From a virus (taxonomy: Duplodnaviria > Heunggongvirae > Uroviricota > Caudoviricetes), in IMG/VR virus record IMGVR_UViG_2541046997_000001, positions 35,307 through 99,306 of that record: DNA of 64,000 bases; one strand, given 5' to 3'. Made by a program: the position numbers and the translations under genes. Under the pieces are notes generated by a model, which had not been told where the DNA came from, ran no database searches, and saw nothing but the letters and a program-made list of their open reading frames with translations. Position 1 is the stretch's first letter. Every line of letters begins with the position of its first letter. Of this stretch, positions 15,801-63,907 are shown one piece after another.

Positions 15801-15847
15801 AATTACACCTCCATTAACTTAACCAAAGCATTACTTTTATCTTTTAA

Positions 15848-15918
15848 AGCTCAGACCCAGATTTGAACTGGGAGCAACTGATTACAAGTCAGTCATTTTA
15901 CCATTGAACTATCTGAGC
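15848..15918 (-). tRNA. tRNA-Thr(UGU)
   Basis: GCTCAGA...TCTGAGC acceptor; ACTGA-CTTGTAA-TCAGT anticodon arm; CCCAG-TTCAAAT-CTGGG T arm. Confidence 0.93.
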
Positions 15919-15962
15919 ATAATGAAAGGGCAGTAGTAGTACCGCCCTAATGTAAACTAGTA

Positions 15963-16109
15963 TTATTTCGTCAATTCTTCCATTCCAGAATCGATTAAAA
16001 TCTGTTTAACTTGTTCTTTTAAGAGTCTAGGAACTCTTTTGTACATTGCTTTTGCAGCTTCCACCGTTTCCTGACTCATAATCTGCTGTGCCCATAACAT
16101 TGCCATCAT
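15963..16109 (-). CDS. Small CD1375/XkdX-like protein
   Basis: MMAMLWAQQIM...VPRLLKEQVKQIL; RBS AAAGGA. Confidence 0.65.
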   Translation of the reverse strand: MMAMLWAQQIMSQETVEAAKAMYKRVPRLLKEQVKQILIDSGMEELTK

Positions 16110-16162
16110 AATATTGTCCTTTCTGTTTAAAAATAAAATTAAGTTTGTTAACATTTTCACAA

Positions 16163-16537
16163 TCATACGTATACTAACTCCGACATTTCTAATACGCATC
16201 CTGTTAGCGTTTCGATGTCCCTTGTATGACCATCTACTACATCTGCCAAACTTGGAGTTGGTTGAAAATCAGGTATTACCACGTAAGTTTGTGTTCTTTT
16301 AATATGCCTTGGAATTGTTTCTCCTTCTGGGGTTTGCTGCTCATCCACGATTGCGTAATTGTCTGTGATTTCAAATCCTTCTTTATACGGCAAATCCGCA
16401 TCCATTATAATAGGTAGATAACCAGCTTGGATGTAATCGCTTTCAAATGGAGAGACAATCACTTTTCCGTTTGTTGTCAAAACATTCGGAGCATATATTA
16501 GAGTAGTATCAACTAGCTTTCCGTATTTTGTATTCAA
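16163..16537 (-). CDS. Putative fibre-associated chaperone (XkdW-like position)
   Basis: TTG start after GGAGGTG; lies between a fibre-like gene and the XkdX-like gene. Confidence 0.5.
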   Translation of the reverse strand: MNTKYGKLVDTTLIYAPNVLTTNGKVIVSPFESDYIQAGYLPIIMDADLPYKEGFEITDNYAIVDEQQTPEGETIPRHIKRTQTYVVIPDFQPTPSLADVVDGHTRDIETLTGCVLEMSELVYV

Positions 16538-16550
16538 GTCATACACCTCC

Positions 16551-19189: not shown

Positions 19190-19263
19190 ACATTTTCCTC
19201 ACTTTCTTTTTATTATTATGCCGATATGAAACCGGCATTTCTAACGAAAGCCGGATTTTACAA

Positions 19264-19310
19264 TGACTCCAATGGGAATTGAACCCATATTATCTCCTGA
19301 CCAAGGATCC
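19264..19310 (-). pseudogene. Internally deleted tRNA remnant (Glu-like)
   Basis: GGATCCT-TG-GTCA fused to GGAGA-TAAT-ATGGG-TTCAATT-CCCAT-TGGAGTC-A; intact T arm, D loop and anticodon missing. Confidence 0.6.
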
Positions 19311-19785: not shown

Positions 19786-20808
19786 TTAAACAAATGCATC
19801 ATCAGCATCATCAGAGTCTTCACGAATTACATATATTTGGGTAGTTTCGCTTGATTCATGCCCCAATAATTTCTGAGCTGTTTCAAGTGGGCGATGATTA
19901 TACACAACTAAATTAGTTGCCCTACTTCTTCGGAGACCGTGGGGAGTAAGTCTCTGCCCAACAATTGCTGAAAATTCATTAATACACCAATCATTGAATA
20001 CGCCTTCGCTCACTTGTCTTGTTTCGCCATTCTTTTGTTTAATTACAAACATGTAAGGACAATCATCTTCGCCACGAACTTCAATCCATTTTTTTAAAGC
20101 AATCATCACATCTTCGCCAAATTGAAGCTTTCTGATTTTACCAACTTTGCTTCTTCCTTTACACCTTATATCATGAGTTTTATACGAAACAGATTCTACT
20201 TCATGTTCTACTCCGTCTTCATCGATTATTTTTACCATTTTTCTTTTAGGTTCATAATTAATTACTTCTTTTAACAATTGCCTAGATTCAGCGCGGCGGC
20301 AGCCTGTGGAATATGTGTATTTTACGTAAGCTAATTTTTGCCACTCCTCACGTTTTTCTAATTCATTACATAGATAATCAATTTGCTCAGGAGTCAAAGG
20401 CTCTTTTGAAAATACTTTTCCTGTTTTGGGAACCTGCATTTCGGCAGTTACAAAATTACGAAAAGTTGGATATTCATCCTCATAAAAATTTTCAATAAAT
20501 TTATTCATAGCACTAACAGCAGATTTTTTAAATTTAATTCCGGATTCAGAAAAGCCTCTATTTGCAAGCCAATTCATATATCTAAGAAATTCTTTCTTTT
20601 TAATATCTATACACTTTTTATCTCGTAAATTATTTTTCACCCAAAGAAAAAATATTCTTAAGGCTGATTTGTACGCATTTATGCTTTTAGGTGAAAGATG
20701 TGTTTGATTGTTAAGATAATCATCAACCATTTCCCTATTAAATTCATTTACTGTTAACCAAATTTCATCTGTAATATCTTCTGATCTATTTGCTATCTTT
20801 TCATTCAA
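19786..20808 (-). CDS. Tyrosine recombinase
   Basis: YSTGCRRAE, KG, HGLRRSRAT, LGHESSETTQIY catalytic motifs. Confidence 0.92.
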   Translation of the reverse strand: MNEKIANRSEDITDEIWLTVNEFNREMVDDYLNNQTHLSPKSINAYKSALRIFFLWVKNNLRDKKCIDIKKKEFLRYMNWLANRGFSESGIKFKKSAVSAMNKFIENFYEDEYPTFRNFVTAEMQVPKTGKVFSKEPLTPEQIDYLCNELEKREEWQKLAYVKYTYSTGCRRAESRQLLKEVINYEPKRKMVKIIDEDGVEHEVESVSYKTHDIRCKGRSKVGKIRKLQFGEDVMIALKKWIEVRGEDDCPYMFVIKQKNGETRQVSEGVFNDWCINEFSAIVGQRLTPHGLRRSRATNLVVYNHRPLETAQKLLGHESSETTQIYVIREDSDDADDAFV

Positions 20809-24684: not shown

Positions 24685-24729
24685 TTTAAAAACCTTCTTC
24701 CATATTTATTTCCCCGTAAGGGATAGTAA

Positions 24730-24800
24730 CAGGTCGGGCAGGAGTTGAACCTGCATCGTTAGTTTTGGAGACTATAATGCTACCATTACACCACCGACCC
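24730..24800 (-). tRNA. tRNA-Trp(CCA)
   Basis: GGGTCGG...CCGACCT acceptor; ATAGT-CTCCAAA-ACTAA anticodon arm; GCAGG-TTCAACT-CCTGC T arm. Confidence 0.93.
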
Positions 24801-24964
24801 AATGTGAGAAACTGGCAGCAATACCGCAAGATTTACGGTATCACTACCAGTTAAGAAAGGAGCGTATGAAGAATTCATACAAAAATGAAAATAAGTATTT
24901 ACCTATGGACATAGATGGAACTTCTCCCTACATTAACATACCGTCATAATATTCTGTCACTATT

Positions 24965-48551: not shown

Positions 48552-48564
48552 AGGGGATTTTAAA

Positions 48565-49527: not shown

Positions 49528-49619
49528 AAAATAGCTCATAAATTTTTAAAAAATAGTTTAAAACTAATTGACAAATTAGTAAAATACGGTATAATAGTAA
49601 TTGTAAAGGAGATAAACAA

Positions 49620-50771: not shown

Positions 50772-50847
50772 AATATTACATATAAATAAGAAGATTCTGG
50801 AGAATAAAAATCCAGAATCTTTTTTCAAAAGGAAGGAGTTATGTATT

Positions 50848-51156
50848 ATGATTTGGACATTATTTGTATTAGACTATGATGGAACGTACAGTTGTGAATA
50901 TGAAGAATACTACGGTGTAAGACCTTCAGTATATCAGATTCCATTGGATAAACAGCAAGAGGTCGAAATGTTTGCGAAGAGAGCTTCCAAAGAATTTAAT
51001 GAGGGGGAAGACGTCTGCGAATCTATTGGAGATATTTTTGAAGGTTTTCTTGAAGAAAATAATATTAAATTTCATTGCGTTGGAGATTTGAAACTTCGTT
51101 TTGGCGATAGACAGAAGGATTATCTTGCGGATTATATCCCTAGAGAGATTGTGTAA
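50848..51156 (+). CDS. Hypothetical protein
   Basis: RBS AAGGAG. Confidence 0.7.
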   Translation: MIWTLFVLDYDGTYSCEYEEYYGVRPSVYQIPLDKQQEVEMFAKRASKEFNEGEDVCESIGDIFEGFLEENNIKFHCVGDLKLRFGDRQKDYLADYIPREIV

Positions 51157-51168
51157 GGTGGTGAAAAT

Positions 51169-51891
51169 TTGAGAAGAGAATGGACAGAAAAGGAAGTTGA
51201 GTATTTAAAAGAACATTATGGACAATATCCTGTAAAAGATATTGCAGAAAAACTCAAAAGAAGTTATGAATCTGTTCAAGCAAAGGCAGGTAGGATTGGC
51301 ATAAATTCCAATGGAAGTATTACTACAAATAGAAGAAAGTGGACAGAACGAGAAGAGAAATACATGGAATCAAGATACTTATATCAACCGGTGGAAATTA
51401 CAGCAAAACGACTAAAGAGATCAGTGTGTTCTGTAAAGAAAAAGGCGGCGAAATTAGGACTTAACAAATTCTATGACATATTTTCAGCAAAACAGTTAGC
51501 GAAATGCTTTAATACTGATATATCTGTGGTTTTAAGATGGATTGAGAAATTTGATATGCCACATGATAGTATAGATCTGAATGGAGTCATTCATTATGAT
51601 ATTGACTTGAAGAAATTTTGGAAATGGACGGAAAATCATAAAGATATAATAAACTGGTCTAAATATGAATGTGGAACCTTGGCATTAGAACCTGAATGGG
51701 TGCGTCAAGAAAAAATGTCTTATGAATATAGTAACACAAGAGAAAAGTGGACAGATGAAGATTTGAGAAAAGTTAAATTACTTTTAAAAGCGGATAAAAC
51801 CTATAAAGAAGTCGCAAAAGAGTTGGGAAGGACATATTACGGCATTCTTCATTTAATGAGGAGTGGTGTAGTATATGGAAAAGTTAATTGA
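51169..51891 (+). CDS. Myb/SANT-like repeat HTH protein
   Basis: Repeated WTEKE/WTERE/WTDED units followed by IAEKLKRS...AGRIG. Confidence 0.75.
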   Translation: MRREWTEKEVEYLKEHYGQYPVKDIAEKLKRSYESVQAKAGRIGINSNGSITTNRRKWTEREEKYMESRYLYQPVEITAKRLKRSVCSVKKKAAKLGLNKFYDIFSAKQLAKCFNTDISVVLRWIEKFDMPHDSIDLNGVIHYDIDLKKFWKWTENHKDIINWSKYECGTLALEPEWVRQEKMSYEYSNTREKWTDEDLRKVKLLLKADKTYKEVAKELGRTYYGILHLMRSGVVYGKVN

Positions 51892-51943
51892 GAAAATTGT
51901 AGAAGTATGATAATATGAAAAGAAAAAGAGGAGGTATTATATC

Positions 51944-52099
51944 ATGGGAGCAGCTTTATTTATTGCAGCAATTTTTTTACTTTGCAAAGGACTTAATTGG
52001 GTAGCTAATTTACCGGAGGAACATTACAAGAACACACTTACACCGGAGCAAAGATCAGATTATGTTTTTAGAAAAAATCTGAATAAATACAAAAAATAA
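51944..52099 (+). CDS. Small membrane protein (51 aa, missed by ORF track)
   Basis: MGAALFIAAIFLLCKGLNWVA...; RBS GAGGAGG. Confidence 0.65.
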   Translation: MGAALFIAAIFLLCKGLNWVANLPEEHYKNTLTPEQRSDYVFRKNLNKYKK

Positions 52100-52176
52100 T
52101 TTTATAATGAATGTGTTTTGGGAGACTAAGTATTAATTTGCTTAGTCTCTTTTATATTACAAGAGAGAATATATAG

Positions 52177-52395
52177 GTGAAAATATATCAGAAAGAAGGA
52201 ATTTATATGAAGAATTTTATTATTGGGAACATGTATTTTGTTCAGGTAACAAGTCACATGAAGGACTATGTTAGTTATGTGGGAAGAAAAGGAAATTTCT
52301 ATGTGTTTCAGAAAGGTGTCGTACAGTATTATCTGAAAGAATGTCATTTGTTTAATGCTGTCCCGGTGATGAATCGAATTGCCATGATTTCTTGA
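52177..52395 (+). CDS. Hypothetical protein
   Basis: ORF track; start probably later, after AAGGA. Confidence 0.55.
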   Translation: MKIYQKEGIYMKNFIIGNMYFVQVTSHMKDYVSYVGRKGNFYVFQKGVVQYYLKECHLFNAVPVMNRIAMIS

Positions 52396-52430
52396 TGTGT
52401 GATATACTCATGATAAGAGGTGATGGTCGT

Positions 52431-52817
52431 ATGGAGAAGTTTCATCGTATGAATTTAGAAGAAATTCAAAAATGCAACAACAAGCAAATTGAAGATATAA
52501 TCTTATACACAGGCAATATCAAGAAGCAAGATTTTCAAGCAGAATGTTTATATTGGATGTGTATGTTGGAAGTAAATATTCGAGCAGATCAAGATGTAGA
52601 ATACACATGGATTAAATGTATTGCTAATATAAGGAATAAAGATGGAGATATAATATTCCAGTATGGAAAAGATTATATGGTGTTTGTACTTGGCTTGGTT
52701 CCAATTGTTTTTACTGGAGATTTATTTCCATATATATTTTCCATAAAAGAAGAAGATCATCGTTGCATATGGAAGTATTTTACGGAGAGTGAATTAAAAA
52801 ATATATATTTGATGTAA
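52431..52817 (+). CDS. Hypothetical protein
   Basis: RBS GAGGTG. Confidence 0.65.
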   Translation: MEKFHRMNLEEIQKCNNKQIEDIILYTGNIKKQDFQAECLYWMCMLEVNIRADQDVEYTWIKCIANIRNKDGDIIFQYGKDYMVFVLGLVPIVFTGDLFPYIFSIKEEDHRCIWKYFTESELKNIYLM

Positions 52818-52926
52818 ATAGTTAGAAGTCGTTATCGTTTTGATAGCGACTTTTGTAGTGTTTATAGTTGAGAGACCAGAGAATAATATCCTGGTCATTT
52901 TTTATGCAGAAATGGGGGTAATAGTT

Positions 52927-53175
52927 ATGAAAAAAATAAAAAGAGAAGATTTGACCATTGGAGAACATGAAAGACTGATTTATCCAAGTGTTTTTACTTA
53001 CTTGACGAGGAACAATAAACCGACAAGACAAGAATATTACAGAACCGGCGATGGGGAGGTATGGGAAATCAGTCATTTTGAAAATGAAAAATCAGAAGAA
53101 TTTGGAAAAAGAATGGATGCATTAGAGTATTTGAGTAACAAATTAGATCTGGCAGAAGCATTTGGTGTATTATAG
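52927..53175 (+). CDS. Hypothetical protein
   Basis: RBS GGGGGT. Confidence 0.65.
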   Translation: MKKIKREDLTIGEHERLIYPSVFTYLTRNNKPTRQEYYRTGDGEVWEISHFENEKSEEFGKRMDALEYLSNKLDLAEAFGVL

Positions 53176-53189
53176 AGGAGATAATAGGT

Positions 53190-54185
53190 ATGTGTTACAA
53201 AGTTGAAAAGCAAAGAAAGATTGAACAAAAATTAGCTGAGGAATTAAAAAATGTTCCGGGTTTTATCGCAGATTTTTTTGACAGATATAAATCATCAGCC
53301 ACAAAAAAAATTAACTGGATCTATATCAGAGACATGTTAAATTGGATGCTTTCAAATGGATGTATCAAGAAGGACAGTATTTCTAATATAGTAGAAGAGG
53401 ATATGAACGGAATCACGAGCAATAATGTAATCAAATATCTTAATGAGCTGAAGAATGGCATATCAGGCAGAGCTAATTCGTTGGACTCAATCAATACTAA
53501 GAAAAATGTATTTAGTTCATTTTGGAATTATTTAAGACAGAACAAATGTGTAGATGAGAATGTTATTGCGTATATTCCTAAAAATTTGTATAAGTCAGAG
53601 AAAAAATTCAAAGAAGTAGAAATTCCAACAGATGAAGAAGTGGAAGAATTCTTAAAAAGGGTTAATGATGGAAACAAAAATGAATTTAATGTTATCAGAA
53701 ATATTGCGATTGTACAATTAATAAAAGGAAGCGGTATTCGATCAGAAGAACTAATTAATATGGATATTTCAGATTTGCACTTGTATGAAGAAGATAGACC
53801 ATACATGATGATTTTGGGAAAAGGAAATATAGAGATGTATGACAAAGTATATATGTCAAAACGTGCAAAAATGTATCTTGAAGAATATTTGACCATGAGA
53901 GATATTTTTATTAGAGAACGAAAAATAACTAATAAGGCACTATTTCTTTCAAACGAAAACAAGAGAATGAGCAAAGGGGCAATAACAAGTTTTTTTGAAC
54001 GATATTCTGATGGGAGAATATATCCACATATGCTTAGACACTGGGTTGGAACAGATTTATATAATAGAACTAACAACATTATGATTGTACAGAGACAATT
54101 AAGACATAAAAACCTTGAAACCGCAGCTAGATATTATGTACACATGGATGAGTCTACAATTGCAAATGCTGTACTTGATTTGTAA
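53190..54185 (+). CDS. Tyrosine recombinase embedded in the small-gene array
   Basis: GSGIRSEEL, GKGN, PHMLRHWVGT, LRHKNLETAARYY. Confidence 0.92.
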   Translation: MCYKVEKQRKIEQKLAEELKNVPGFIADFFDRYKSSATKKINWIYIRDMLNWMLSNGCIKKDSISNIVEEDMNGITSNNVIKYLNELKNGISGRANSLDSINTKKNVFSSFWNYLRQNKCVDENVIAYIPKNLYKSEKKFKEVEIPTDEEVEEFLKRVNDGNKNEFNVIRNIAIVQLIKGSGIRSEELINMDISDLHLYEEDRPYMMILGKGNIEMYDKVYMSKRAKMYLEEYLTMRDIFIRERKITNKALFLSNENKRMSKGAITSFFERYSDGRIYPHMLRHWVGTDLYNRTNNIMIVQRQLRHKNLETAARYYVHMDESTIANAVLDL

Positions 54186-54220
54186 TATGTGTTAAAATAA
54201 TATGCAATGGAGGAATAAAA

Positions 54221-54418
54221 TTGAGAGGAAAATATATTGGAAGAGACGGAAGTATGGGGTTTCGTACAGGACAAACATATGAGATAAGCACAGAACTTAC
54301 GAAAATCTACAGAGATAAGAAAAAGGTTGATGTGATTATGGTGCGTAGTGGGAAATTGTTTTGTCCATATGATTCTGTGGAAAGCATCTTGGAAAATTGG
54401 ATTTTGGAGAAAATGTGA
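54221..54418 (+). CDS. Hypothetical protein
   Basis: RBS GGAGG; KYIGRDGSMGFRTGQTY. Confidence 0.7.
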   Translation: MRGKYIGRDGSMGFRTGQTYEISTELTKIYRDKKKVDVIMVRSGKLFCPYDSVESILENWILEKM

Positions 54419-54573
54419 TGGAAAATTTTATGAATACTCCGGTAGAATATAACTGGACAGAGAAAGATATTGTAGAAGAGTTTGAAAAGTGTAAAGATAA
54501 GAAAATGATTGCAAAGATCTATGATATAACTGTAAAAGAGGTTACAGAAATTTTGAAAAGAATAAAAGATTAA
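54418..54573 (+). CDS. Small hypothetical protein (51 aa)
   Basis: ATG overlaps the upstream TGA. Confidence 0.6.
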   Translation: MENFMNTPVEYNWTEKDIVEEFEKCKDKKMIAKIYDITVKEVTEILKRIKD

Positions 54574-54589
54574 TTGCAAAGGAGAATAT

Positions 54590-54823
54590 ATGGATCGTAG
54601 GTGGAAATATTTTATAGTATTAAATAGTAATGACTTTCCCTATAACATAGTTGAATTTGAAGAAACTCCTGATGGTGAATTACCATTATGTTGTGATCTT
54701 AATGTAGCTATAAATTTTGATTCACCAGAAGAGCTTAATAGTTGGGTACAAGAACATACATCATTAATTTTGGAGAATTGCGATTATCATATTGAAGGAC
54801 ATTATTTGCCGGTTAATATGTGA
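54590..54823 (+). CDS. Hypothetical protein
   Basis: ORF track; RBS AAGGAG. Confidence 0.7.
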   Translation: MDRRWKYFIVLNSNDFPYNIVEFEETPDGELPLCCDLNVAINFDSPEELNSWVQEHTSLILENCDYHIEGHYLPVNM

Positions 54824-54835
54824 TTTTAAAGAAAG

Positions 54836-55084
54836 GTGAAAAAGATGGATTTAGATGTTTTTATTGAAGAAATTAAGTCTGTATATCAAGATGCAACAGA
54901 AAGAGGATTTGACAGTATTGTAATTGCCATAGATACAGATTTAGATAATACATATTATATTAATGATACAGAAGATGGATTTCAGTGTGATTTATTTGAT
55001 TATGTATTTGATGATTTATATGATATATCTAGTCAACTATATGATGAGATTCAAGGGAATGTAATTGATATCAGAATAGAATGA
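54836..55084 (+). CDS. Very acidic hypothetical protein
   Basis: Asp/Glu-rich, 82 aa. Confidence 0.7.
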   Translation: MKKMDLDVFIEEIKSVYQDATERGFDSIVIAIDTDLDNTYYINDTEDGFQCDLFDYVFDDLYDISSQLYDEIQGNVIDIRIE

Positions 55085-55099
55085 AACAGAGGAGCGTAT

Positions 55100-55291
55100 A
55101 TGGACGAAGATCAAAAACGCATGGCATGTGCGTGGTGTGATGGGGAAATTAGGCATGGAGATAAAGCATATAAAAGAACTGGATATTATGGATTGTATTG
55201 TTCTTTGGAATGTTTGGTGAAAGGATCTCGGTTACAATACGAAGAGGTAATTGTAAACGAAGATATATTTAAGAACGAATGTAAAGGATAG
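55100..55291 (+). CDS. Small zinc-binding protein
   Basis: CAWC...YCSLEC. Confidence 0.7.
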   Translation: MDEDQKRMACAWCDGEIRHGDKAYKRTGYYGLYCSLECLVKGSRLQYEEVIVNEDIFKNECKG

Positions 55292-55308
55292 GTTTTGAGG
55301 TATAAATT

Positions 55309-55575
55309 ATGTTTGAAATAGAAGTTGATTGTGTGCAAGTATGCACTTGTAAGATATCTGATGAAAATGAACAGATGATAAGAAATTATATAAATGATAA
55401 TCCAGAAAAGTTCGAATTTATGTCTTGTCAGGAGTCTATTATAGAAGCTATTTCTGAATTGAAAATTGATTTATATAATGACTATATAGAATCTGATTCA
55501 TATACAAATGACATTAGATGGTCGGAATACGAAGAAAGAAGTGCGGAGGAAATATTAGATGAAAAATCCATTTAA
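55309..55575 (+). CDS. Acidic hypothetical protein
   Basis: ORF track. Confidence 0.7.
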   Translation: MFEIEVDCVQVCTCKISDENEQMIRNYINDNPEKFEFMSCQESIIEAISELKIDLYNDYIESDSYTNDIRWSEYEERSAEEILDEKSI

Positions 55576-55768
55576 AAATAAAACAGATGAAGAACTAAAA
55601 GTTCTATATGAACAGTATAAGGAATTTCAGAAAACAGGAGTAATTCCAGATAATGAACTTGGAAAAATTAGAGATGAATTATATGAAAAATTAAATTCAG
55701 GATGGCATGTTATGATGATGCAGTACCTACTAGAAGTTATTGCAGAAAGATGGATAAAAGGAATATAG
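55559..55768 (+). CDS. Hypothetical protein
   Basis: ORF track. Confidence 0.7.
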   Translation: MKNPFKNKTDEELKVLYEQYKEFQKTGVIPDNELGKIRDELYEKLNSGWHVMMMQYLLEVIAERWIKGI

Positions 55769-55877
55769 ATTTTATGAAAGGAGTTGTTTTTATGTCAGAA
55801 CTTGATTACCCAGGAGAAGCGTTGGAAAATCCGGTTAAATTATAGTAATTATTTAATAAGAAGGAGTATGGTAGAAT

Positions 55878-56060
55878 ATGATTAATATTATTCATAGAAG
55901 TAAATTAGAAGGTGCAAACAGGTTTGGAACTTGCGCTTCGTGTGTAAAAGAAAGAGACGTGTATAAAATCTCGTTTGAAGATGAACATGGAAATAATTGC
56001 TCCATAAGTTTGTGTAAAAGTTGTTTGAAAGAATTGGAAAATATGATTCATGAAATCTAA
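55878..56060 (+). CDS. Small zinc-binding protein
   Basis: CASC...ISLCKSCL. Confidence 0.7.
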   Translation: MINIIHRSKLEGANRFGTCASCVKERDVYKISFEDEHGNNCSISLCKSCLKELENMIHEI

Positions 56061-56082
56061 GTTTTAACAGGAAAATGGAGGA

Positions 56083-56292
56083 ATGAATATGCATACATTC
56101 AACGGAAAGAAAACAAGAATACACTACAACAGTGATATGTCTGGAAATATTATTATTCAACATAAAGATTATGAGTTGGAGTTGAGTGTTTTAGGCGAAG
56201 ATATTCTTGATTTCGTTGCTGAATATGTAAGAAGTCAGAAGATTAGTAAACTGGAACAGATGGATAGTAAAGAGATTTTGGGATTGGAGTGA
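56083..56292 (+). CDS. Hypothetical protein
   Basis: RBS GGAGG. Confidence 0.7.
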   Translation: MNMHTFNGKKTRIHYNSDMSGNIIIQHKDYELELSVLGEDILDFVAEYVRSQKISKLEQMDSKEILGLE

Positions 56293-56296
56293 TAAT

Positions 56297-56476
56297 ATGA
56301 CAGTTCAGGAATTGATAAATGAATTGAATCAAATAGAAGACAAATCTCAAAGAGTAATTTTTGAGTGTATAGGAAACCGTAATGTATATGATGTAAATGA
56401 AATAGTAGGAGCAAACATTCCTAAAGATGATTCTTGTAAAGAATACGAAAGAGGAATACTTATTAGTAATGTGTAG
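56297..56476 (+). CDS. Hypothetical protein (59 aa, missed by ORF track)
   Basis: MTVQELINELNQIEDKSQRV... Confidence 0.7.
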   Translation: MTVQELINELNQIEDKSQRVIFECIGNRNVYDVNEIVGANIPKDDSCKEYERGILISNV

Positions 56477-56500
56477 AGATTGCGAGATTGGAGTGATACA

Positions 56501-56878
56501 ATGTATAAATGGGAATGTCTTATTTGTGGTAAGTAACCTGAACATTTTGGAATTAAAGAGTTTGCAATGTCTCCGAGAACAACATTATTTGGCGAGTTCA
56601 ATTTTAGAGACGCAGATGGTAATATCAGAACTGTAAATCGCAAGGTAAATAAACCAGTGTGTTCTGAAGAATGTAAGCGAAAGAATGAGGAACAATATTT
56701 TGTAGAAGAATATAAAGGGACTAGAATTTATTGCATAGATGGTAGATATATGACATATCTTGAATGTGATTATTGGTACGATAGTATTCAAGGAATAAGA
56801 AACAGAATTGATAATCCACATTTGATACCGGTTGCACCTAATCTTTTAAGTGCTTTAAGGGGTAAAATGAGAGAATAA
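56501..56878 (+). pseudogene. Zinc-binding protein gene with premature TAA at 56534
   Basis: MYKWECLICGK*PEHF... in frame with the 56567 ORF containing VCSEEC; RBS GGAG. Confidence 0.6.
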
Positions 56879-56991
56879 AATTTAACTTTCATTTTTGCGG
56901 CACAAAGTCTAGCATTTTTGAGAACGTAATTTAACGTAATCATATTGACTATGACGTAAATACATGTGATAATATGGTGGGAGGTGATTTT

Positions 56992-58185
56992 ATGTTCAAA
57001 ATAAATCCATATAGACCTGGAGCTGGATTGATGCCAATGTATATTGCTGGAAGAGATGAAGACATAGAGAGTGTAGAAGAAATGTTTAATGCATTATCTA
57101 TGAATATACCAACGCCATCTATTGTTTTTAGCGGTTTGCGTGGAGTTGGGAAAACTGTTCTTATTAATAAGTTACAAGGTATTGCGGAAGAAAAAGATAT
57201 ATTTTGCAGACATATTGAGGTTGAAGAGAGAAATGATTTTATTTCTCAAATAGCTACTTGTTCACAAGCATTTCTGAGAAAAGTTAGTGCAAAAGAAAAA
57301 TTTAAGCATCTTATACAAAAGCCATTAGATGCGATAAAATCTTTAGTTGTATCGTTTGATGCAAACGATAATACATTTTCATTATCATTACAAGAAAAAG
57401 AACTGTATAAATCAAATAGTTTGACACAAAGTTTGACAGAAGTGTTTGTAAATATCGGAGAAATAGCATATAAAACAGAAATACCTATATGTTTTTTTAT
57501 TGATGAGATTCAATACATGAAACAGAAAGAATTAGGATCGCTGATTGCAGCGTTGCATCGTACAAATCAACTTGGTTATCCAGTAATGATTGTTGGTGCA
57601 GGTTTACCTAAAATATACAAAATGTTATCTGAAGAAAAATCATATTCGGAAAGACTATTTGTATATAAAGAAATAGGTTCATTAACATATGAACAGTCAT
57701 GTAAGGCGATTGAAGAACCAGCGAAAAAATTTTCTGTTGAATATTCTAAAGATGCGATTGACAAGATTGTTGATGTAACAAAAGGATACCCGTTTTTTAT
57801 ACAGCAGCTTTGTCAGGTTGTATATAATAATACAAATGAAAAAACGATTCAAAAATCACATATTGAAAATTGCATGAATGATTTTTTAAAAATATTGGAC
57901 GTTGGATTTTTTAAAGTTAGATACGAAAGATGTTCTGATGGAGAAAAAAGATTTATATTTGCAATGGTAAAATGTGGTGAACTTCCATGTACAATTTCAA
58001 ATGTAGCAAAAAACTTGGGAAAAAAAGTAAAAACAATTTCACCTACAAGAGCGCAGTTAATTAACAAAGGCATTATATTCCCAATAAGGCATTCAGAATT
58101 GGATTTTACTGTTCCTGAATTTGATAATTATATACGGAGACTAGGTGAATATAAACAATGGAACGAGAGTGGTTTAGATGAATAA
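56992..58185 (+). CDS. AAA+/P-loop ATPase with its own promoter (moron)
   Basis: NPYRPGAG..P..IAGRD, GLRGVGKT, FIDEIQY, GYPFFIQ; TTGACT(56945)-17-GATAAT. Confidence 0.9.
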   Translation: MFKINPYRPGAGLMPMYIAGRDEDIESVEEMFNALSMNIPTPSIVFSGLRGVGKTVLINKLQGIAEEKDIFCRHIEVEERNDFISQIATCSQAFLRKVSAKEKFKHLIQKPLDAIKSLVVSFDANDNTFSLSLQEKELYKSNSLTQSLTEVFVNIGEIAYKTEIPICFFIDEIQYMKQKELGSLIAALHRTNQLGYPVMIVGAGLPKIYKMLSEEKSYSERLFVYKEIGSLTYEQSCKAIEEPAKKFSVEYSKDAIDKIVDVTKGYPFFIQQLCQVVYNNTNEKTIQKSHIENCMNDFLKILDVGFFKVRYERCSDGEKRFIFAMVKCGELPCTISNVAKNLGKKVKTISPTRAQLINKGIIFPIRHSELDFTVPEFDNYIRRLGEYKQWNESGLDE

Positions 58186-58360
58186 CAAAAGAAGGATAAT
58201 TCTTAGCCCACATCCAGACAAATCAAAATTGTGGTGCTGGACTGTGTTAGAAGAAGATAAGAAAAATAATTTATGGTATTGCATAGACACAGGTGTAGAA
58301 GTGAGTTGGGATATTGCTGCAAGAAGAGCAAAACAGTCGATGCAAGTCAAAGATTATTAG
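58178..58360 (+). CDS. Hypothetical protein
   Basis: Overlaps the ATPase stop codon. Confidence 0.65.
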   Translation: MNNKRRIILSPHPDKSKLWCWTVLEEDKKNNLWYCIDTGVEVSWDIAARRAKQSMQVKDY

Positions 58361-58386
58361 TGAATATATAATATGTAAGACGATAC

Positions 58387-58650
58387 TTAATTGGTATCGT
58401 CTTTTTTGATATGACCAAGATTGCAACTATACTGAAGCAACCTGTTAAATGTGTCATCATCAGATCTGAATAAGTCAGACGGAGTACATTCTAGTGTAAT
58501 ACATATTTTTTCTAGTGTATCAAAATTTATTTTACTTGTATCTCCGTTATAGAGCTTGCATGCAGCAGGATAACCAACACCAATTGCTTTTGCAAACTGA
58601 TTTTTATTTTGGAATTTCTTGTCCACAAGATCCTTAATATCTAAGTGCAT
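58387..58650 (-). CDS. XRE-family HTH repressor
   Basis: KNQFAKAIGVGYPAACKLYNG..SKINFDTLEKICITLECTPSDLF. Confidence 0.9.
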   Translation of the reverse strand: MHLDIKDLVDKKFQNKNQFAKAIGVGYPAACKLYNGDTSKINFDTLEKICITLECTPSDLFRSDDDTFNRLLQYSCNLGHIKKDDTN

Positions 58651-58733
58651 ATATCCACATCCTCTTTATTGTATATCGTTTACAATATATAGTTTAGCAT
58701 ATATTCTTGAGAAAATAAATATATTTTATAGAA

Positions 58734-58769
58734 TATACTCTTGACAATATACTGTAAAGAGTATATAAT
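58734..58769 (+). promoter_or_regulatory. Consensus SigA promoter with inverted-repeat operator
   Basis: TTGACA(58741)-17-TATAAT(58764); TATACTCTT...AAGAGTATA. Confidence 0.85.
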
Positions 58770-58827
58770 AAGGAACATCAAAGGAAGGTATTTATAGTTT
58801 ACATAATTGAGAAAGGAGAAAGTACAT

Positions 58828-59208
58828 ATGGAATTGCATAGATATGATATTATAGAAGCTGAAATAAAAACAGCATCTGGTTCTGTTCAAGGTAAGAAAA
58901 GACCATATGTTATTGTGAGCAATGAATCTGGCACAAAACATGCTAGTATAATTACTATAATGCCTTTAACTCATGTTATCAAAAAATTGTATATGCCGGT
59001 ACACGGATGTATTGAGGCTGAGTCTGAAAATGGTTTGTCCAAATACTCAATGGTTTTGGGAGAGCAGCCAATGACTATATGTAAAGAGGAAGTTTTACGT
59101 AAACTTGGTAGGGTTACAAATCAAAATCATAAAAACATGATAAATAAGGTATGTTATAACTCATTTTTTTATGGTGAAGAAATAAATTGGGAGGAAGTAT
59201 TAGCATGA
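58828..59208 (+). CDS. PemK/MazF-like endoribonuclease-fold protein
   Basis: RYDII.A....GSVQGKKRPYVIVSN..G.KHA..ITIMPLT...EQPMTICK..V..KLG. Confidence 0.85.
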   Translation: MELHRYDIIEAEIKTASGSVQGKKRPYVIVSNESGTKHASIITIMPLTHVIKKLYMPVHGCIEAESENGLSKYSMVLGEQPMTICKEEVLRKLGRVTNQNHKNMINKVCYNSFFYGEEINWEEVLA

Positions 59209-59483
59209 TAGTGACAACATCTGAGATCATTACAAAAGAAGAAGCTAAACGTAGGATAGACGAATCACCTGGTGAATATGTAATATGGGATTCTATAAAG
59301 AGGACATGTTTTGTGCATGAGAGTAGGCGTATTTCTAAAGAAAAAAGTGAGAAATTAATTGATTTAGCAAATAAAATATTATATCAAGATAATAGTTATT
59401 TTGGTGTGTTGTCGTTGGAAGTCGGCAAGAAGATAAAAGACCCCAACATTGTAAATAATCTTTTATTTCCACAACAAGAATGA
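59205..59483 (+). CDS. Hypothetical protein
   Basis: RBS GGAGG. Confidence 0.65.
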   Translation: MIVTTSEIITKEEAKRRIDESPGEYVIWDSIKRTCFVHESRRISKEKSEKLIDLANKILYQDNSYFGVLSLEVGKKIKDPNIVNNLLFPQQE

Positions 59484-59487
59484 AAAT

Positions 59488-59538
59488 CGAACATCTGTTC
59501 TGAAATAGGTTGACAAGAACATATGTTTGTGATATTAT
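59488..59538 (+). promoter_or_regulatory. Promoter with two LexA (Cheo/SOS)-like boxes
   Basis: CGAAC-atct-GTTCT at 59488; AGAAC-atat-GTTTG at 59516 between TTGACA(59510) and TATTAT(59533). Confidence 0.75.
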
Positions 59539-59845
59539 TCATATTGTAAAATTTACCAGTAAAAAAGAGGATCTACTTGATCATAGGTGTTGGCGCACCT
59601 CCTAAGTAAATCCTCTTAAGACAACGATAGCATAAATGCTATACACTTGTATTCTTACATATTTAATTTTTAGTGTCAAGCATTTCTGCCATTAATTTCC
59701 AAATTTTACAATTAAATAAGGAAAAGTTAATATTTTATTCTTTTGACGTTTAGTCGAAAGGTGTTATTTTTGCACTCTTTTTTATGTGAAAAGAATAAAA
59801 ATGAGGGAATATTGCTTTTAGAATTATGTTAAAGGTGGTGAAAGA

Positions 59846-60500
59846 GTGGAATACATAATTACAAATGGCAAAATCTCCATATGTTTAGACGAAAAAGGAA
59901 GACCTGTCACATGTGGTAAAAAAGAAGCACATTCTTTTAGCAAAGAGAAGGCAGAAAATATATTAAACAACCTTCCAAGCGTCCTAAAAAACTTCCATTT
60001 TAAAATTAGATGTGTTTCTCCGGGAGGAAGTAAAAAAAGATACAAAAAATGAATGTAACAATCACAAAGCTGATGATTGTAAAGGTGAAAAAACAGTATT
60101 ATATGGTGAAGATTATGAACCGTGCAAAGAGGTAGTCAAATGGATGGAATTATCAAAATCATGTGATGTTCTATTTAGTGAAGCCAGGAAAAGAAGAAGT
60201 GAATTACATAAAAAATTATCTAATGTGGACAAGGAATTGTCTAACGCTATGCACGAAATAGAACTTGAAAAGTGGAAGAGTGGATCTGATGGCTATAAAG
60301 AATATAAAAAGGTCAAAGAAGTTTTGCAGAAACGTAGAAAAATAAAAGATGAGCTTCTTGTAGTTCAGTCCGTTATAACAAACACAAAAGGATCAATTAA
60401 TTTAAAAAATATTGAAAAAACTTTTGAGATGTTAAGTACGAGACATTTTACTATGAGAATCATAGAAGAAGATAATCCGTTTGATGGAATAGAAGATTAA
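59846..60500 (+). pseudogene. Two overlapping ORFs, probably one gene with a +1 frameshift near 60022
   Basis: 59846-60052 and 60012-60500 overlap; removing one G from CCGGGAG joins the frames. Confidence 0.45.
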
Positions 60501-60518
60501 GAAAAGAGGTAATGAGGA

Positions 60519-61157
60519 ATGGATAAAGAGGAGTGGAAGAATCAAATCGCAAATGAATACTGTGGTAACAATATGAGAAAACTTCGAAAGATTTGTGACA
60601 AGATTTTAAAAGCTAGAAATATTCCAAAAGAACATTGGGAGAGCTTTTATGATCGTGCTGTTGATATTTTTCTTGAGAGTATTAATTCCTATGATGATTC
60701 CAAAGAATGTAAGTTTAATACTTATTTTTATGGGAATCTAAGACGGAGAACTGGAACATGGTTTAGAGATAATTTTCGATTTAAGAGATGTAATTTGGAA
60801 AGAGATTTTATTGGGAATATCATAAAAGATGAAAAGGGAAACCCTACGATTATTCCGAATGTTTCTATACATATGAAAGTTGATCCGGAAGAGGATTGTA
60901 TTTTGGAAGAGATTATTTCCTCTAATTATAATTTAGAGAGAGAAATAATGAATAAATTATATCCAACCACAGATAGAGTAGAACTTTATAAAAGTAAATT
61001 ATCTTATAGTCAACAATTGGTTGTAGATCTTATGTGTGCCGGATATACAGAAAATGAAATCTTATCAGAATTACATATTTCTAGGGAAGAGTACAAAGAT
61101 AAAATTTTAGACACGATGAAACTATATGAAAATGTAAAAGTATTATTACGAGAATAA
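60519..61157 (+). CDS. Sigma factor-like protein
   Basis: DIFLESINSYDDSKECKFNTYFYGNLRRR (region 2-like); LSYSQQLVVDLMCAGY...EILSEL (region 4-like). Confidence 0.7.
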   Translation: MDKEEWKNQIANEYCGNNMRKLRKICDKILKARNIPKEHWESFYDRAVDIFLESINSYDDSKECKFNTYFYGNLRRRTGTWFRDNFRFKRCNLERDFIGNIIKDEKGNPTIIPNVSIHMKVDPEEDCILEEIISSNYNLEREIMNKLYPTTDRVELYKSKLSYSQQLVVDLMCAGYTENEILSELHISREEYKDKILDTMKLYENVKVLLRE

Positions 61158-61177
61158 TTAAATGGAGGAATGTAATC

Positions 61178-62617
61178 ATGGCAAAGAAAATCAGAAAGAG
61201 AACGTTGTCTTTAGAATCATATTTAGAAAAAATCGTAGAAGAGGATATTAGCGATAATCAAGACGTACAAAGGATGTTTTGCTGGGAAAATGTGATGGTG
61301 AATGAACTCATTAAAACTGTGCTAACAGATGATTATATTCCGCCAATTATCTTAGGCGAAGAAGATTTAGAAGAAGATGTCGTTCAGCAATATATTGTAG
61401 ATGGAATGCAAAGAAGTTCTGCTCTGATTAAATTTAGATATGGAAATTATAAAATAACACCTTCTTTGGAAGAACCTTTTATTCAATATCAAAGAAAAAT
61501 GAAGGATGAAAATAATAATATTTGTAAAGATGAAAATGGAAAGGTTATTTGGGAGTCAATTGAATACGACCTAAGAAGGAAAACATACGAGATGTTGCCA
61601 CCTGAACTAAAGAAAATGTTTGATGATTACCAAATTGATATTACTATACACCAGCATTGTACGATGGCACAAATTAGTCGCCTAGTAAGAAGGTATAATA
61701 ACCATAGAGGGATGAATCAGTCTCAGAAGGCATTTACTTATATTGATTTATATGCACGGAAAATCAGGACTATTTCTGAGAATAAATTCTTTAAAAATTG
61801 TATAAGCTGCTCTGGCAGCGAGCGATCTAAAGGAACTTATGAGCGGTTGGTATGTGAATCTGTAATGACAACATTTTTCTTTAACAACTGGAAAAAAGCT
61901 GCAAAAGACATGAGTAAATTTTTAAATGAAAAGGCAACAGAAGAACATTTTGAAGCAATTGACCAGTATTTAAGTAGGATTGAAAATATTTGCAAAGATA
62001 ATTTTACGGATGTGTTTGTTCCTAAAAATGTAGCCGTTTGGGTTTCTGTATTTAAAAAGTTTACGGAATATGGATTAGATGATAGTGATTTTTTAGAGTT
62101 TATTAAGGAGTTTAAAAAAGTATTGCATTCAAAAAAGATAAACAGCATTTCTTTTGATGAATTAAATGAGCATCGAAATACTAAAGACAAGGCAACGTTA
62201 AAAGAAAAAATAGACATATTAGTTTCTCTTATGGATGAGTTTTTACATAATACAAATGAAAAAATATTTGATGTGTTGGATGAGTATGATCCAAATCAAA
62301 ATATCATTAATTTTATTAAAGAGAATGTGAAAGAAGATGTTATCGAAGATGATATTGAATTTTACAAATCGTTGCTTGAAGATTGGTCTGTGGAAGTAGA
62401 TAACTCATCAAAACTTCTTGATGAAGGTAACATGAAATCATTACTTGCTGCAATTGCATATAGTGTTGAAAATGAGCTTGATGAAGAAGTTCCTGCGTGG
62501 ATGGTGAGCTTCTTTGATAGAAATTCTACATATATTGAAAATCAAAAAAAGAATTATACATATATGATTAATGATCTTAATGAATTCATCAGAAATAAAT
62601 ACCAACTGGCAAGTTAG
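61178..62617 (+). CDS. DUF262 (GmrSD/ParB-like N-domain) protein
   Basis: QDVQRMFCW...YIPPIILGE...YIVDGMQRSSAL...VRRYNNHRGMN. Confidence 0.8.
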   Translation: MAKKIRKRTLSLESYLEKIVEEDISDNQDVQRMFCWENVMVNELIKTVLTDDYIPPIILGEEDLEEDVVQQYIVDGMQRSSALIKFRYGNYKITPSLEEPFIQYQRKMKDENNNICKDENGKVIWESIEYDLRRKTYEMLPPELKKMFDDYQIDITIHQHCTMAQISRLVRRYNNHRGMNQSQKAFTYIDLYARKIRTISENKFFKNCISCSGSERSKGTYERLVCESVMTTFFFNNWKKAAKDMSKFLNEKATEEHFEAIDQYLSRIENICKDNFTDVFVPKNVAVWVSVFKKFTEYGLDDSDFLEFIKEFKKVLHSKKINSISFDELNEHRNTKDKATLKEKIDILVSLMDEFLHNTNEKIFDVLDEYDPNQNIINFIKENVKEDVIEDDIEFYKSLLEDWSVEVDNSSKLLDEGNMKSLLAAIAYSVENELDEEVPAWMVSFFDRNSTYIENQKKNYTYMINDLNEFIRNKYQLAS

Positions 62618-62620
62618 GAG

Positions 62621-62929
62621 GTGATATGTGTGAGTAAGAAAGAACATAAGTATAAAAGAGAAAAACATGGTATTGGAATTGAAGGTGCTTTATTAATCGG
62701 TGGAGCTGTTTCTATATGTGTATTGGCATCATGTGGAGACGAGAAGAAAGAGTATATTGATCCAAAACCAATTATTGTCGAAATGCCGGAACCGTGTACA
62801 GAAGGTAGAATACTCGTGACAAAAAATGGGCGATGTATTTTTGAGTACAAAGGTGAAATTGAAATGATTAATGACGGTAGAAATGGTGAAGAAATTGATG
62901 TGCAGGTACATATGAAAGAAGAGAAATAA
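62621..62929 (+). CDS. Membrane-anchored/lipoprotein-like protein
   Basis: Hydrophobic stretch ending VLASCG. Confidence 0.6.
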   Translation: MICVSKKEHKYKREKHGIGIEGALLIGGAVSICVLASCGDEKKEYIDPKPIIVEMPEPCTEGRILVTKNGRCIFEYKGEIEMINDGRNGEEIDVQVHMKEEK

Positions 62930-62947
62930 ATAAAGGAGAAATAAATT

Positions 62948-63712
62948 ATGTGTGAATTTAAAAGTGGAATTATTTTTAAAAACAGGGTAGTGTTAGCACC
63001 TTTAGGAAATGAAAGTCATTCAAATTTACTTGAAAGTTTAGAGGTAGAAGATAATGAATTTAATGCTTCAAAGAAATTTGTGAGAGCAGAATTAATACCG
63101 CCAGAAAAATATATTATCACTTCAGATATCTCTAAATGGGAGTACAGAGTTGACCAAGATTTTGTCCCAGATTGGTATAGTAACGATCCGGGAAGATATG
63201 AACAGGAATTTAGAGATAATGTTAAGGGTTTTATGGATAAAAACTTTACGGAGGAATTTGGATATTATTGGACAAACATTCAAATGGATGGAAAGGTGTA
63301 CCACTTTATGTATGGAGTTATTACGCATATGAGTTTTGGTAGTAATAATAACTACACAGAATCTGCTATAAGAAGGTATCTTAAGGAGTGCAAACTTGCA
63401 AAAGATATTGAAAGTAAGTACAAGAAAAAGATTGTTCCATTTGAAAACAACTTACTTAGTATGGATGGATTTGATGATTATGGCGTTGTTAAAGATGATG
63501 TATTATCTATTCTAAACTTTGATTTATTTAGGAAATGCGGGAATAGATTGCCGCTGATCGATTGTATATATTGGTTATCAACACCAAATCAGACACCGTT
63601 GAAAAAAGATTCTTCCTGTGTTCAGTTTGTCTACAGTGATGGGGACATGGGTTACGACTCTTGCCGCTGGCGTGGTCGTGGGGTTCGTCCGTTTTTTATC
63701 ACGGAATCTTAA
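62948..63712 (+). CDS. Two-domain hypothetical protein (C-terminal DUF6273-like)
   Basis: MCEFKSGII N-domain; NNYTESAIRRYL...YWLSTP...GVRPF C-domain. Confidence 0.7.
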   Translation: MCEFKSGIIFKNRVVLAPLGNESHSNLLESLEVEDNEFNASKKFVRAELIPPEKYIITSDISKWEYRVDQDFVPDWYSNDPGRYEQEFRDNVKGFMDKNFTEEFGYYWTNIQMDGKVYHFMYGVITHMSFGSNNNYTESAIRRYLKECKLAKDIESKYKKKIVPFENNLLSMDGFDDYGVVKDDVLSILNFDLFRKCGNRLPLIDCIYWLSTPNQTPLKKDSSCVQFVYSDGDMGYDSCRWRGRGVRPFFITES

Positions 63713-63907
63713 ATCTGTGCATCTTGTCGATAACGTTTTTGTAGTTGGGTTAAAATGTCGATTTCATTCGGAAATAAACACAATATATAGTGGCTTTTAA
63801 TGAATGCAAATACTATATGTTGTGTGTAAAAATTCCTGAGATGGAAGTCCTTCACGGACAATCATTACAAGAAATGAATTGTAATGCGACAACCGCCACT
63901 TCGTCAA

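Follow-up and report, generated by a model that had tools for sequence, protein, structure and literature searches.

Slot-specific 18-bp palindromes at the borders of gene-content differences in SPbeta-like phages

Heterospecific lox and FRT sites, as used in recombinase-mediated cassette exchange, and the R64 shufflon (Rci/sfx) are systems in which one tyrosine recombinase serves many sites and the identity of the overlap decides which of them pair. Sites of the lox and FRT types with unlike centres do not cross-react, and a cassette lying between two different sites can be swapped in register. Cassette exchange of this kind is an engineered use of mutant sites, however, and the R64 shufflon inverts segments within one replicon; to our knowledge, no ordered natural series of some 20–40 heterospecific sites for exchange between genomes has been described so far. 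Here, we describe an 18-bp palindrome of the form WWRAAA-N6-TTTYWW which recurs between genes in a 64,000-nucleotide stretch of phage DNA (the window; bases 35307–99306 of the single 164,212-bp record IMGVR_UViG_2541046997_000001). The palindromes are ordered, slot-specific crossover points and form the exact borders of gene-content differences among related phages.

The pdif/dif modules of Acinetobacter plasmids (PMC6449649, PMC13141974) are similar in having dispersed short Xer-type sites, with inverted arms and a 6-bp centre, which lie in an accessory region and delimit gene modules found in varied combinations in related replicons. The phage modules share these defining properties, as they are bounded by Xer-type sites and occur in differing contexts in related replicons. 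The pdif sites are 28 bp in length with 11-bp XerC and XerD arms, occur in alternating orientation and are thought to be acted on by host XerC/XerD, whereas the phage sites are 18 bp in length with six conserved base pairs per arm, have one polarity, a centre of their own in each slot and a fixed order, and are located in a replicon, the phage, which encodes its own Xer-like recombinases. The PeSL cassettes of T4-type phages (PMC2839356, PMC4122927) also resemble the present arrays, in that short intergenic repeats mark the borders of small-gene insertion, deletion and replacement in hyperplastic regions and mediate modular shuffling in a large phage. PeSLs differ in consisting of a sigma-70-type early promoter and a terminator stem-loop and in recombining by homology between copies, which gives mini-circles; the phage sites have no promoter and no GC stem, and combine constant arms with slot-specific centres, such that copies share little homology.

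The record has a G+C content of 32% and was classed as a provirus by its collection. Late and structural genes occupy the minus strand up to approximately 33 kb of the window, and dense small-gene arrays occupy the plus strand from approximately 34 kb onward (gene calls in the window are from a heuristic of this analysis). The phage is SPbeta-like, as judged from the tyrosine recombinase encoded at 19786, which has 31% identity to SPbeta YomM (E = 2e-46). As relatives of the array we took 34 viral contigs encoding the second recombinase of the window, at 53190, with 77–99% identity, including 10 kb on each side. A second region, at 110–132 kb of the genome and thus outside the window, was represented by 80 loci anchored on a 576-aa protein. 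The Bacillus comparison comprised SPbeta (NC_001884) and a set of ten SPbeta-like Bacillus phages. Metagenome contigs from four independent studies, which by their nature cannot reveal circles or strand breaks, were aligned on window positions 44000–63900. A near-identity search of the phage collection with the 44–58 kb segment returned nothing useful.

A previous, sequence-only reading of this DNA had listed 14 copies of the element. All 14 strings are present where it placed them; ten belong to the family described here, while those at 15823, 19226, 19244 and 45866 do not. Against dinucleotide-shuffled controls the enrichment that had been anticipated is weak, with 16 matches to WWRAAA-N6-TTTYWW in the window compared with 9.1 ± 3.1, and four of 100 shuffles reach 16. 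This result favours the interpretation that the palindromes are chance matches in AT-rich intergenic DNA, which coincide with gene-content borders as both lie between genes. Intergenic matches in the whole 164-kb genome, however, number 23 at N6 and 2–7 at each other spacer from 0 to 14, and because this control holds composition constant and changes the spacer only, we regard the palindrome excess as real. The N6-specific excess is reproduced in five data sets: besides the genome itself, there are 293 matches at N6 compared with 29–127 at other spacers in the 34 array relatives, 420 compared with 54–246 in the 80 loci of the independent region, 42 compared with 5–17 in SPbeta (31 compared with 0–6 when only intergenic matches are counted) and 96 compared with 3–41 in the ten SPbeta-like Bacillus phages. 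The chance interpretation is refuted by the spacer-length control together with the junction statistics given below, in which sites are enriched at variable relative to fixed junctions, and the slot-specific centres are moreover conserved; we attach practically no probability to it.

The consensus is ATGAAA-N6-TTTCAT in the present phage family and ATAAAA-N6-TTTTAW in Bacillus SPbeta. The change in the arms is paired between clades (G3/C16 here, A3/T16 in SPbeta), as would be expected if a single protein reads both arms. All of the sites are of one polarity, with A enriched at position 6 of the centre on the coding strand; the tendency of the spacer to end in A, remarked upon in the sequence-only reading, is seen as 53% A at this position among 500 unique sites. 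An information profile over ±40 nt contains no conserved flanking motif beyond the 18-mer and the ribosome-binding site. We note that the 6-bp centres have a higher G+C content than the surrounding DNA (window 44000–64000) and that CG occurs within 45 of 189 distinct centres, compared with approximately 12% expected, which is twice the prediction from composition.

In alignments of the window with the 34 loci, the limits of homology coincide with the sites. The points at which homology begins are concentrated at motif base −1 to +1 and those at which it ends at +14 to +18, and the breakpoints of gene gain and loss in relatives, which the sequence-only reading had proposed to compare with the sites, match them to the base. 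The 35 genomes contain 136 combinations of flanks, in which 25 clusters of right flanks occur with several left partners and 30 clusters of left flanks with several right partners. Each arm travels with the flank on its own side. In pairs of sites with the same left and unrelated right flanks, the left arm, centre and right arm are identical in 98, 86 and 47% of cases, respectively; the corresponding values are 55, 90 and 95% for unrelated left and same right flanks, and 23, 3 and 17% where both flanks are unrelated. The crossover therefore lies within the 18-mer, with the centre common to both partners. A site is found at 103 of the 171 junctions with multi-partner neighbours (60%) and at 11 of the 57 fixed junctions (19%), which corresponds to an odds ratio of 6.3 (p = 1e-7). 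Detection in this 2 × 2 test was centre-aware; an earlier version that used the strict motif gave an odds ratio of only 3.1, many junctions having one-mismatch sites.

A small set of centres is found in the same order in all of the array loci, with variable spacing between them. The order is agataa, gcacga, gaacgc, tacaga, tcagga, tcggaa, ctcgta, gttaca, gtcgca and ttcaca ahead of the recombinase gene, followed by gattga, tatagg, tctaag, gaatgc, tttaac, tttact/cttcca and tgtcga after it. In the window, where all of the sites are on the plus strand, the first slot is occupied by ATAAAA agataa TTTCAA (44381–44398), which conforms to the strict motif and has a centre found in 33 of the 34 loci, with 11 left and 13 right flank types. 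The site ATGAAA gcacga TTTTGT (45363–45380; 29 of 34 loci, ten left and ten right flank types) has one right-arm mismatch and is located 10 nt past a stop codon and 29 nt ahead of the next start. It is followed by ATGAAA gaacgc TTTCAT (45887–45904; 20 of 34 loci, eight left and six right flank types) and by ATAAAA tcagga TTTTAT (47781–47798; 19 of 34 loci, eight left and nine right flank types), the latter overlapping the stop codon of the upstream gene. The sequence ATAAAG tgggaa TTTGAT (48154–48171), which matches at ten of 12 arm positions, is probably a decayed site, although its membership is uncertain; homology with relative L006 begins at 48153, and L007 has the same degenerate form.

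The next two sites are TTGAAA ctcgta TTTCTT (48781–48798; 31 of 34 loci, 11 left and ten right flank types) and AAGAAA gtcgca TTTCAA (49131–49148; 29 of 34 loci, ten left and seven right flank types). At the first of these, relative L001 differs in the left arm and in the DNA upstream of it but is identical from the centre through the right arm into the downstream DNA; at the second it has an additional 1-kb cassette between two site copies with the centres gttaca and gtcgca. Beyond the recombinase gene, GTAAAG gatagg TTTTGA (55281–55298; nine of 12 arm positions) is tentatively assigned as a degenerate site, to be compared with the tatagg slot of relatives; it was unlisted in the sequence-only reading. 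The sites ATGAAA tctaag TTTTAA (56050–56067) and ATAAAA tttaac TTTCAT (56875–56892) both overlap the upstream stop codon and both have six left and four right flank types; the former is found in nine loci in conserved order and the latter in 33 of 34. Homology with L001 begins at 56878 within the latter site, and a relative differs there in the left arm and upstream DNA but not in the centre, right arm and downstream DNA. The site AAAAAA cttcca TTTTAA (59986–60003), a strict-motif match that was also previously unlisted, holds the same slot place in L007–L010, L039 and L040, with no flank swap seen so far among the compared loci. Finally, TTAAAA tgtcga TTTCAT (63750–63767) keeps its place in the slot order and has two flank types on each side; homology with several relatives ends at 63736–63739.

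The pattern recurs in the other data sets. In the second region the slot order is kept within clades, and the centres vary between clades while the arms are constant. Metagenome contigs from three studies begin or break at 45877–45890, at the site at 45887; joints and loose contig ends from two runs are located at 47772–47781; one contig (n = 1) jumps from 48799 to 49133, skipping the cassette between two sites; contigs also break or join at 49133; and those of three runs start or join at 56878. Further breaks are found at 55296, within the degenerate site at 55281 (three runs), and at approximately 58409–59475, positions at which there is no good site. The ten SPbeta-like Bacillus phages have the centre order tgtaag, gatgca, gtaaaa, agactg, gatagt, tattta, acgata, gtaatt, tgataa, with flank-swap statistics as in the gut phage array. 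Gad1 and Gad2, which are anti-defence genes, are annotated in the records within the array stretch between the cagaga and acgata sites. In the SPbetaL phages these anti-Gabija genes occupy one shared variable stretch (L130:12431–13318, L131:11483–12685, L133:11608–12495 and L134:14909–15802), which in L130, L131 and L133 is bounded by sites with these two centres.

A laboratory evolution study provides a further comparison. Dragos et al. (10.1101/2020.05.06.055103) mapped 16 phi3Ts–SPbeta junctions, 15 of which are in long homology; the single 'non-homologous' junction joins SPbeta yosA to phi3Ts 107382. In the same interval both parents have an identical 18-mer with the centre tattcc (SPbeta 116414–116431, phi3Ts 107396–107413) between unrelated flanks, and natural relatives break exactly at the tattcc site. 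The laboratory junction was located by supplement coordinates only, which bracket it to approximately 120 bp or less and are not proof.

Of the four listed strings that we exclude from the family, that at 15823–15840 (CCAAAG...TTTTAT) matches at nine of 12 arm positions and adjoins a tRNA-Thr (15848–15918), and that at 45866, also with nine of 12, recurs in only two loci. The strings at 19226 and 19244 (19226–19261) each constitute one half of a CCGGC/GCCGG hairpin, which is located next to a tRNA-like 3′ fragment; the pair is retained by a single 98% relative, and the 64 relatives compared for the region have no N6 excess. We considered this pair as the cognate site of the 19786 recombinase and rejected it, as it is not conserved in relatives. 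The suggestion that the back-to-back pairs 19226/19244 and 45866/45887 are like empty cassette slots is not supported for either pair. The absence of sites from the capsid/tail operon, on the other hand, holds. The tRNA-like fragment itself (19262–19300, minus strand) comprises a T-arm, GGGTTCAATTCCC, and an acceptor strand, without an ARAGORN call. A strong terminator precedes it, downstream of the operon of the YomM-like recombinase, and the fragment could be a remnant attachment core.

The core sites, which belong to the early and accessory gene arrays, start at or just past a stop codon, in agreement with the sequence-only reading, and end 14–29 nt before the next start, directly 5′ of the ribosome-binding site. 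The layout in SPbeta is identical (stop codon, site, ribosome-binding site, ATG), and over both phages the sites are 14–35 nt ahead of the start codon within co-directional transcription units. A role of ATGAAA as the start of a leader peptide was rejected, since many left arms read ATA or AAG. The location inside co-directional units is what would be expected of an RNA hairpin in polycistronic mRNA, with a 6-bp stem and a 6-nt loop, which serves as a processing site or translational operator and coincides with the borders only secondarily. An arm-independence test on the 500 unique sites is also in line with pairing, positions 2/17 and 3/16 being complementary more often than independence predicts and 1/18 not, although clade mixing and chance matches could yield the same result. 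The SPbeta stem (ATAAAA/TTTTAT) would, however, consist of six A–U pairs, which established RNA thermodynamics indicates to be too weak for stability, and 68 of the 500 sites here have an A–C mismatch at position 3/16. Furthermore, the arms are inherited separately with their flanks, and an Rfam search of the sequence returned ROOL and two tRNAs only, with no family at the sites. We consider the RNA hairpin to be a very improbable explanation.

The sequence-only reading had proposed an integron-like cassette system, and the likeness is evident in the recombinase gene beside an array of mostly single, promoter-less genes bounded by palindromes that abut stop codons. As a true integron-like system, single-gene circles would be excised between flanking sites and re-inserted at a primary site. 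The cassette-sized indels bounded by two sites (for example, the additional 1 kb of L001 and the contig that jumps from 48799 to 49133) are compatible with this, as is the R80 right flank, which is found in two different slots (centre tcggaa or agataa). The parts of the proposal that stand are that the sites are exchange borders and that the recombinases are real; the integron particulars (attC and IntI) fail. Integron attC sites are imperfect palindromes of 57–141 bp with R''-L''/L'-R' boxes, which fold into hairpins with extrahelical bases, whereas the phage sites are plain 18-bp palindromes without conserved flanks and lack an attC-type imperfect hairpin. No distinct attI/Pc-like primary site was seen beside 53190, the nearest sites being ordinary slots, although no dedicated search was made. 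Scores against the integron integrase model TIGR02249 are 27.7 bits for the 53190 protein and 42.3 bits for the 19786 protein, far below the cut-off of 265. The phage sites are also heterospecific and ordered: flanking centres differ, so that circles would need recombination across heterologous overlaps, and the slots keep their order in all of the genomes examined. With unlike neighbouring centres in conserved order, allelic exchange of like slots between collinear genomes fits better than excision and capture of single-gene circles, and we regard a true integron-like system as very unlikely.

Both tyrosine recombinase genes noticed in the sequence-only reading are real and keep their catalytic residues. 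The Xer-like recombinase at 53190–54185 (plus strand), located within the cassette array, is the candidate enzyme; the YomM orthologue at 19786–20808 (minus strand), located in the late-gene region and having SAM-like N-terminal domains, is the alternative candidate. Both belong to PF00589 (cut-off 27.1 bits), with 79.0 bits (E = 4.6e-22) for the former and 79.2 bits (E = 4e-22) for the latter. The 53190 protein has the full catalytic set of seven residues (Arg184, Glu187, Lys211, His280, Arg283, His306 and Tyr316), of which all except Glu187 are listed as invariant in 119 homologues down to 61% identity, 85 of 331 columns being invariant overall. The 19786 protein is conserved among 80 viral contigs (58–98% identity), and its R, HxxR, H and Y motifs can be made out in alignments. 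The best solved relative of the 53190 protein is XerH (E = 6e-11), and its NCBIfam scores are 135.6 bits for XerS (cut-off 267), 109 for XerA (220), 103.7 for XerC (335) and 91.5 for XerD (330); as all of these Xer equivalog scores are below cut-off, the proteins are described here as Xer-like and are not assigned to a named Xer family. Homologues of the 53190 type with 35–38% identity are present in four of five clade-B records and one with 37% identity is present in a 203-kb relative; no relative was found in the bacterial species genomes scanned with the recombinase alignment.

Among solved structures and curated families, the 53190 protein is closest to XerH (Helicobacter and Campylobacter) and XerS (streptococci and lactococci), respectively. 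Each of these reads both arms of its site, difH or difSL, as one protein (PMC3325230, PMC5357621). The difH sequence is ...TTATGAAAA-CTGCAC-TTTTCAAAC... (PMC3325230), such that its inner arms, ...TGAAAA and TTTTCA... around a 6-bp centre, are much like ATGAAA-N6-TTTCAT; the arms of difSL are TTTCCGAAAA and TTTTCTTGAAA (PMC5357621). Inner arms of the form ...GAAAA | centre | TTTTC..., which closely resemble those of the phage, are thus read by the closest characterized enzymes. These systems differ in having one chromosomal site per genome, which serves dimer resolution with FtsK, and arms of 10–11 bp, and the TGAAA core is one base farther from the centre than in the phage sites.

Taken together, the strict N6 geometry, the inverted arms that remain symmetric between clades, the centre that is better conserved than the arms and the intact Xer-like enzymes lead us to give an even chance to the view that a phage-encoded tyrosine recombinase uses the sites as minimal core sites, with the centre as the overlap region. 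The N6-specific excess corresponds to the inverted arms around a 6–8 bp central region that characterize such core sites. Two recombinase monomers, of the Xer-like 53190 protein or the YomM-like 19786 protein, would bind the inverted 6-bp arms, and strands would be exchanged at the edges of the 6-bp overlap. Because strand exchange needs matching overlaps, exchange would be limited to like slots, and the only partner of a site would be its same-numbered counterpart in a co-infecting phage or a resident prophage. Unlike centres would prevent deletions within a genome. One crossover would swap genome arms and two would swap a cassette, leaving the gene order unscrambled, while the gain or loss of a cassette would result from rare recombination between unlike centres. 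Somewhat more tentatively, at a little short of even, we suggest that the arrays from SPbeta to the gut phages represent natural recombinase-mediated cassette exchange, with 20–40 ordered heterospecific core sites that pair with like-numbered partners only.

Several observations weigh against a recombinase acting at the sites. Only six base pairs per arm carry information, compared with 11–13 bp in dif, lox and FRT, and arms of approximately 11 bp were not found. The link between recombinase and site is architectural only, and both enzymes are candidates. One relative that is 91% complete has the sites and no detectable 53190 homologue. In SPbeta, YomM and YopP, the proteins of the tyrosine-recombinase family besides MrpR (YopR), read HxxK and not HxxR. 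The arm-independence test did not separate a half-site interpretation from hairpin pairing. Approximately 35–40% of the combinatorial junctions have no recognisable site, although several of these carry degenerate copies, and one clear junction is at a ribosome-binding-site microhomology (54594/55087); other recombination therefore also shapes the arrays. Homologous recombination limited to the sole shared 12–18 bp would, moreover, leave the same footprint as site-specific exchange.

We note with regard to the two SPbeta proteins that the HxxK is in box II (yomM, L124:40301–41302; yopP, L125:28691–29767), that their matches among solved structures are to Cre only and weak, that of YopP being below significance (E = 0.16), and that no role for either is described in the SPbeta literature searched.

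The site-less junctions and the junction at ribosome-binding-site microhomology would also be accommodated if the palindromes dock some other paired DNA-binding protein, for example a prophage repressor serving as a roadblock to transcription or a nucleoid-type protein, and the relaxed homologous recombination of the phage itself (Sak4/RecT type) crosses over, without a site-specific recombinase, in the only 12–18 bp that are shared. The junction footprint, in which arms go with flanks around a common centre, is equally expected of crossovers in the sole shared sequence. The SPbeta annotation includes a Sak4-like annealing protein, a RecJ-like nuclease and a Holliday-junction resolvase, and the 15 laboratory junctions in long homology are consistent with such a route. 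A role in expression could, furthermore, account for the compact sites being fixed just 5′ of the ribosome-binding site. Docking would explain the arms but not the conservation of the centre, at 86–90% identity across unrelated flanks, and a shared stretch of 12–18 bp is little for homologous exchange to be efficient, although it has served in dozens of independent joins. An operator function in particular is at odds with the placement of the sites away from promoters: the ±40 nt information profile contains no conserved −35/−10 element beside them, the best sigma-70-like promoters of 44–64 kb (49568, 58741 and 59510) are hundreds of bases from any site, and the top terminator-like matches in the same segment are away from the sites.

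Two described systems bear on the docking of a repressor. The stoperators of cluster A mycobacteriophages, bound by the L5 repressor gp71, are 20–30 repressor sites in short intergenic gaps of co-directional arrays in a temperate phage. They are 13-bp asymmetric sites of one sequence and depend on orientation, whereas the phage sites are palindromic, have variable slot-specific centres and coincide with exchange borders. The second system is MrpR (YopR) with its SPBRE element in SPbeta (PMC10516654), which belongs to the same phage group and likewise combines a recombinase-fold protein in the early array with a repeated intergenic binding element. MrpR, which retains three of seven catalytic residues, has its SPBRE targets in ten promoter regions; all ten peaks obtained by ChAP-seq were assigned to SPBRE-bearing promoter regions, an element different from the palindrome, and none to the other approximately 25 palindromes (PMC10516654). 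The SPBRE that we derived from the ten published target upstream regions is promoter-like, ACAAAtACAAAwAATATGTATA, and unrelated to the palindrome. In our view the docking of another protein, with homologous recombination at the palindromes, is the main alternative, less probable than recombinase core sites but with an appreciable chance of being correct.

We also rejected two identities suggested by this system. The palindrome is not SPBRE, as SPbeta carries both elements, having 31 intergenic palindromes besides SPBRE. The 53190 protein is not an MrpR-like repressor, as it has seven of seven catalytic residues, BLASTP against YopR gives E = 3.8 and the 8A0A chain is absent among its PDB matches. 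At some SPbeta promoters (aimR and yosX; for example, 76170–76187 and 129244–129313 in L125/L126) a palindrome is located within a few bases of SPBRE, and the ChAP-seq peaks at aimR and yosX cannot tell the two elements apart.

Some other features of these genomes were noted during the analysis. The window contains a full-length ROOL RNA (RF03087; 24898–25500, minus strand; model positions 1–574 of 574, 336.8 bits) between a YonO-like polymerase gene and a tRNA-Trp (24729–24801, minus strand). At 58409–59475, a Cro/C1-type helix–turn–helix gene (58387–58650, minus strand) and the next gene are replaced as one block in contigs of three metagenome runs, and both borders of the block, at 58409–58411 and 59475, are without a palindrome site; in relatives, the gene that follows the helix–turn–helix gene at the matching position has a PemK toxin domain. 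A relative from the 63%-identity clade has an IS605 OrfB/TnpB-type gene within the cassette array (L038:14116–15237). In L035 (17861–20470) the prophage seems to stop approximately 7 kb past the internal recombinase, where a 180-aa integrase fragment is followed by apparent host genes for a low-molecular-weight phosphatase and an ion channel.

The coincidence of gene-content borders with the sites points to a built-in gene-exchange system that is so far unpublished; full-text literature searches, including reviews of SPbeta, returned no description of this element. The borders of phage mosaicism are usually ascribed to selection acting on the products of rare recombination, either illegitimate or of the relaxed homologous kind, whereas here they are on a defined 18-bp element that is built like a recombinase core site and has a slot-specific centre. 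Bacillus subtilis genetics offers a direct test of the idea, the element being shared by SPbeta and phi3T. If it is correct, YomM and YopP would acquire a candidate function, a new category of mobile-gene logistics would stand beside integrons and dif modules, and the sites would offer orthogonal recombination sites for engineering. For the phages themselves, if an enzyme acts on the sites, the arrays would constitute a dedicated device for the in-register trade of accessory and anti-defence genes, Gad1 and Gad2 among them.

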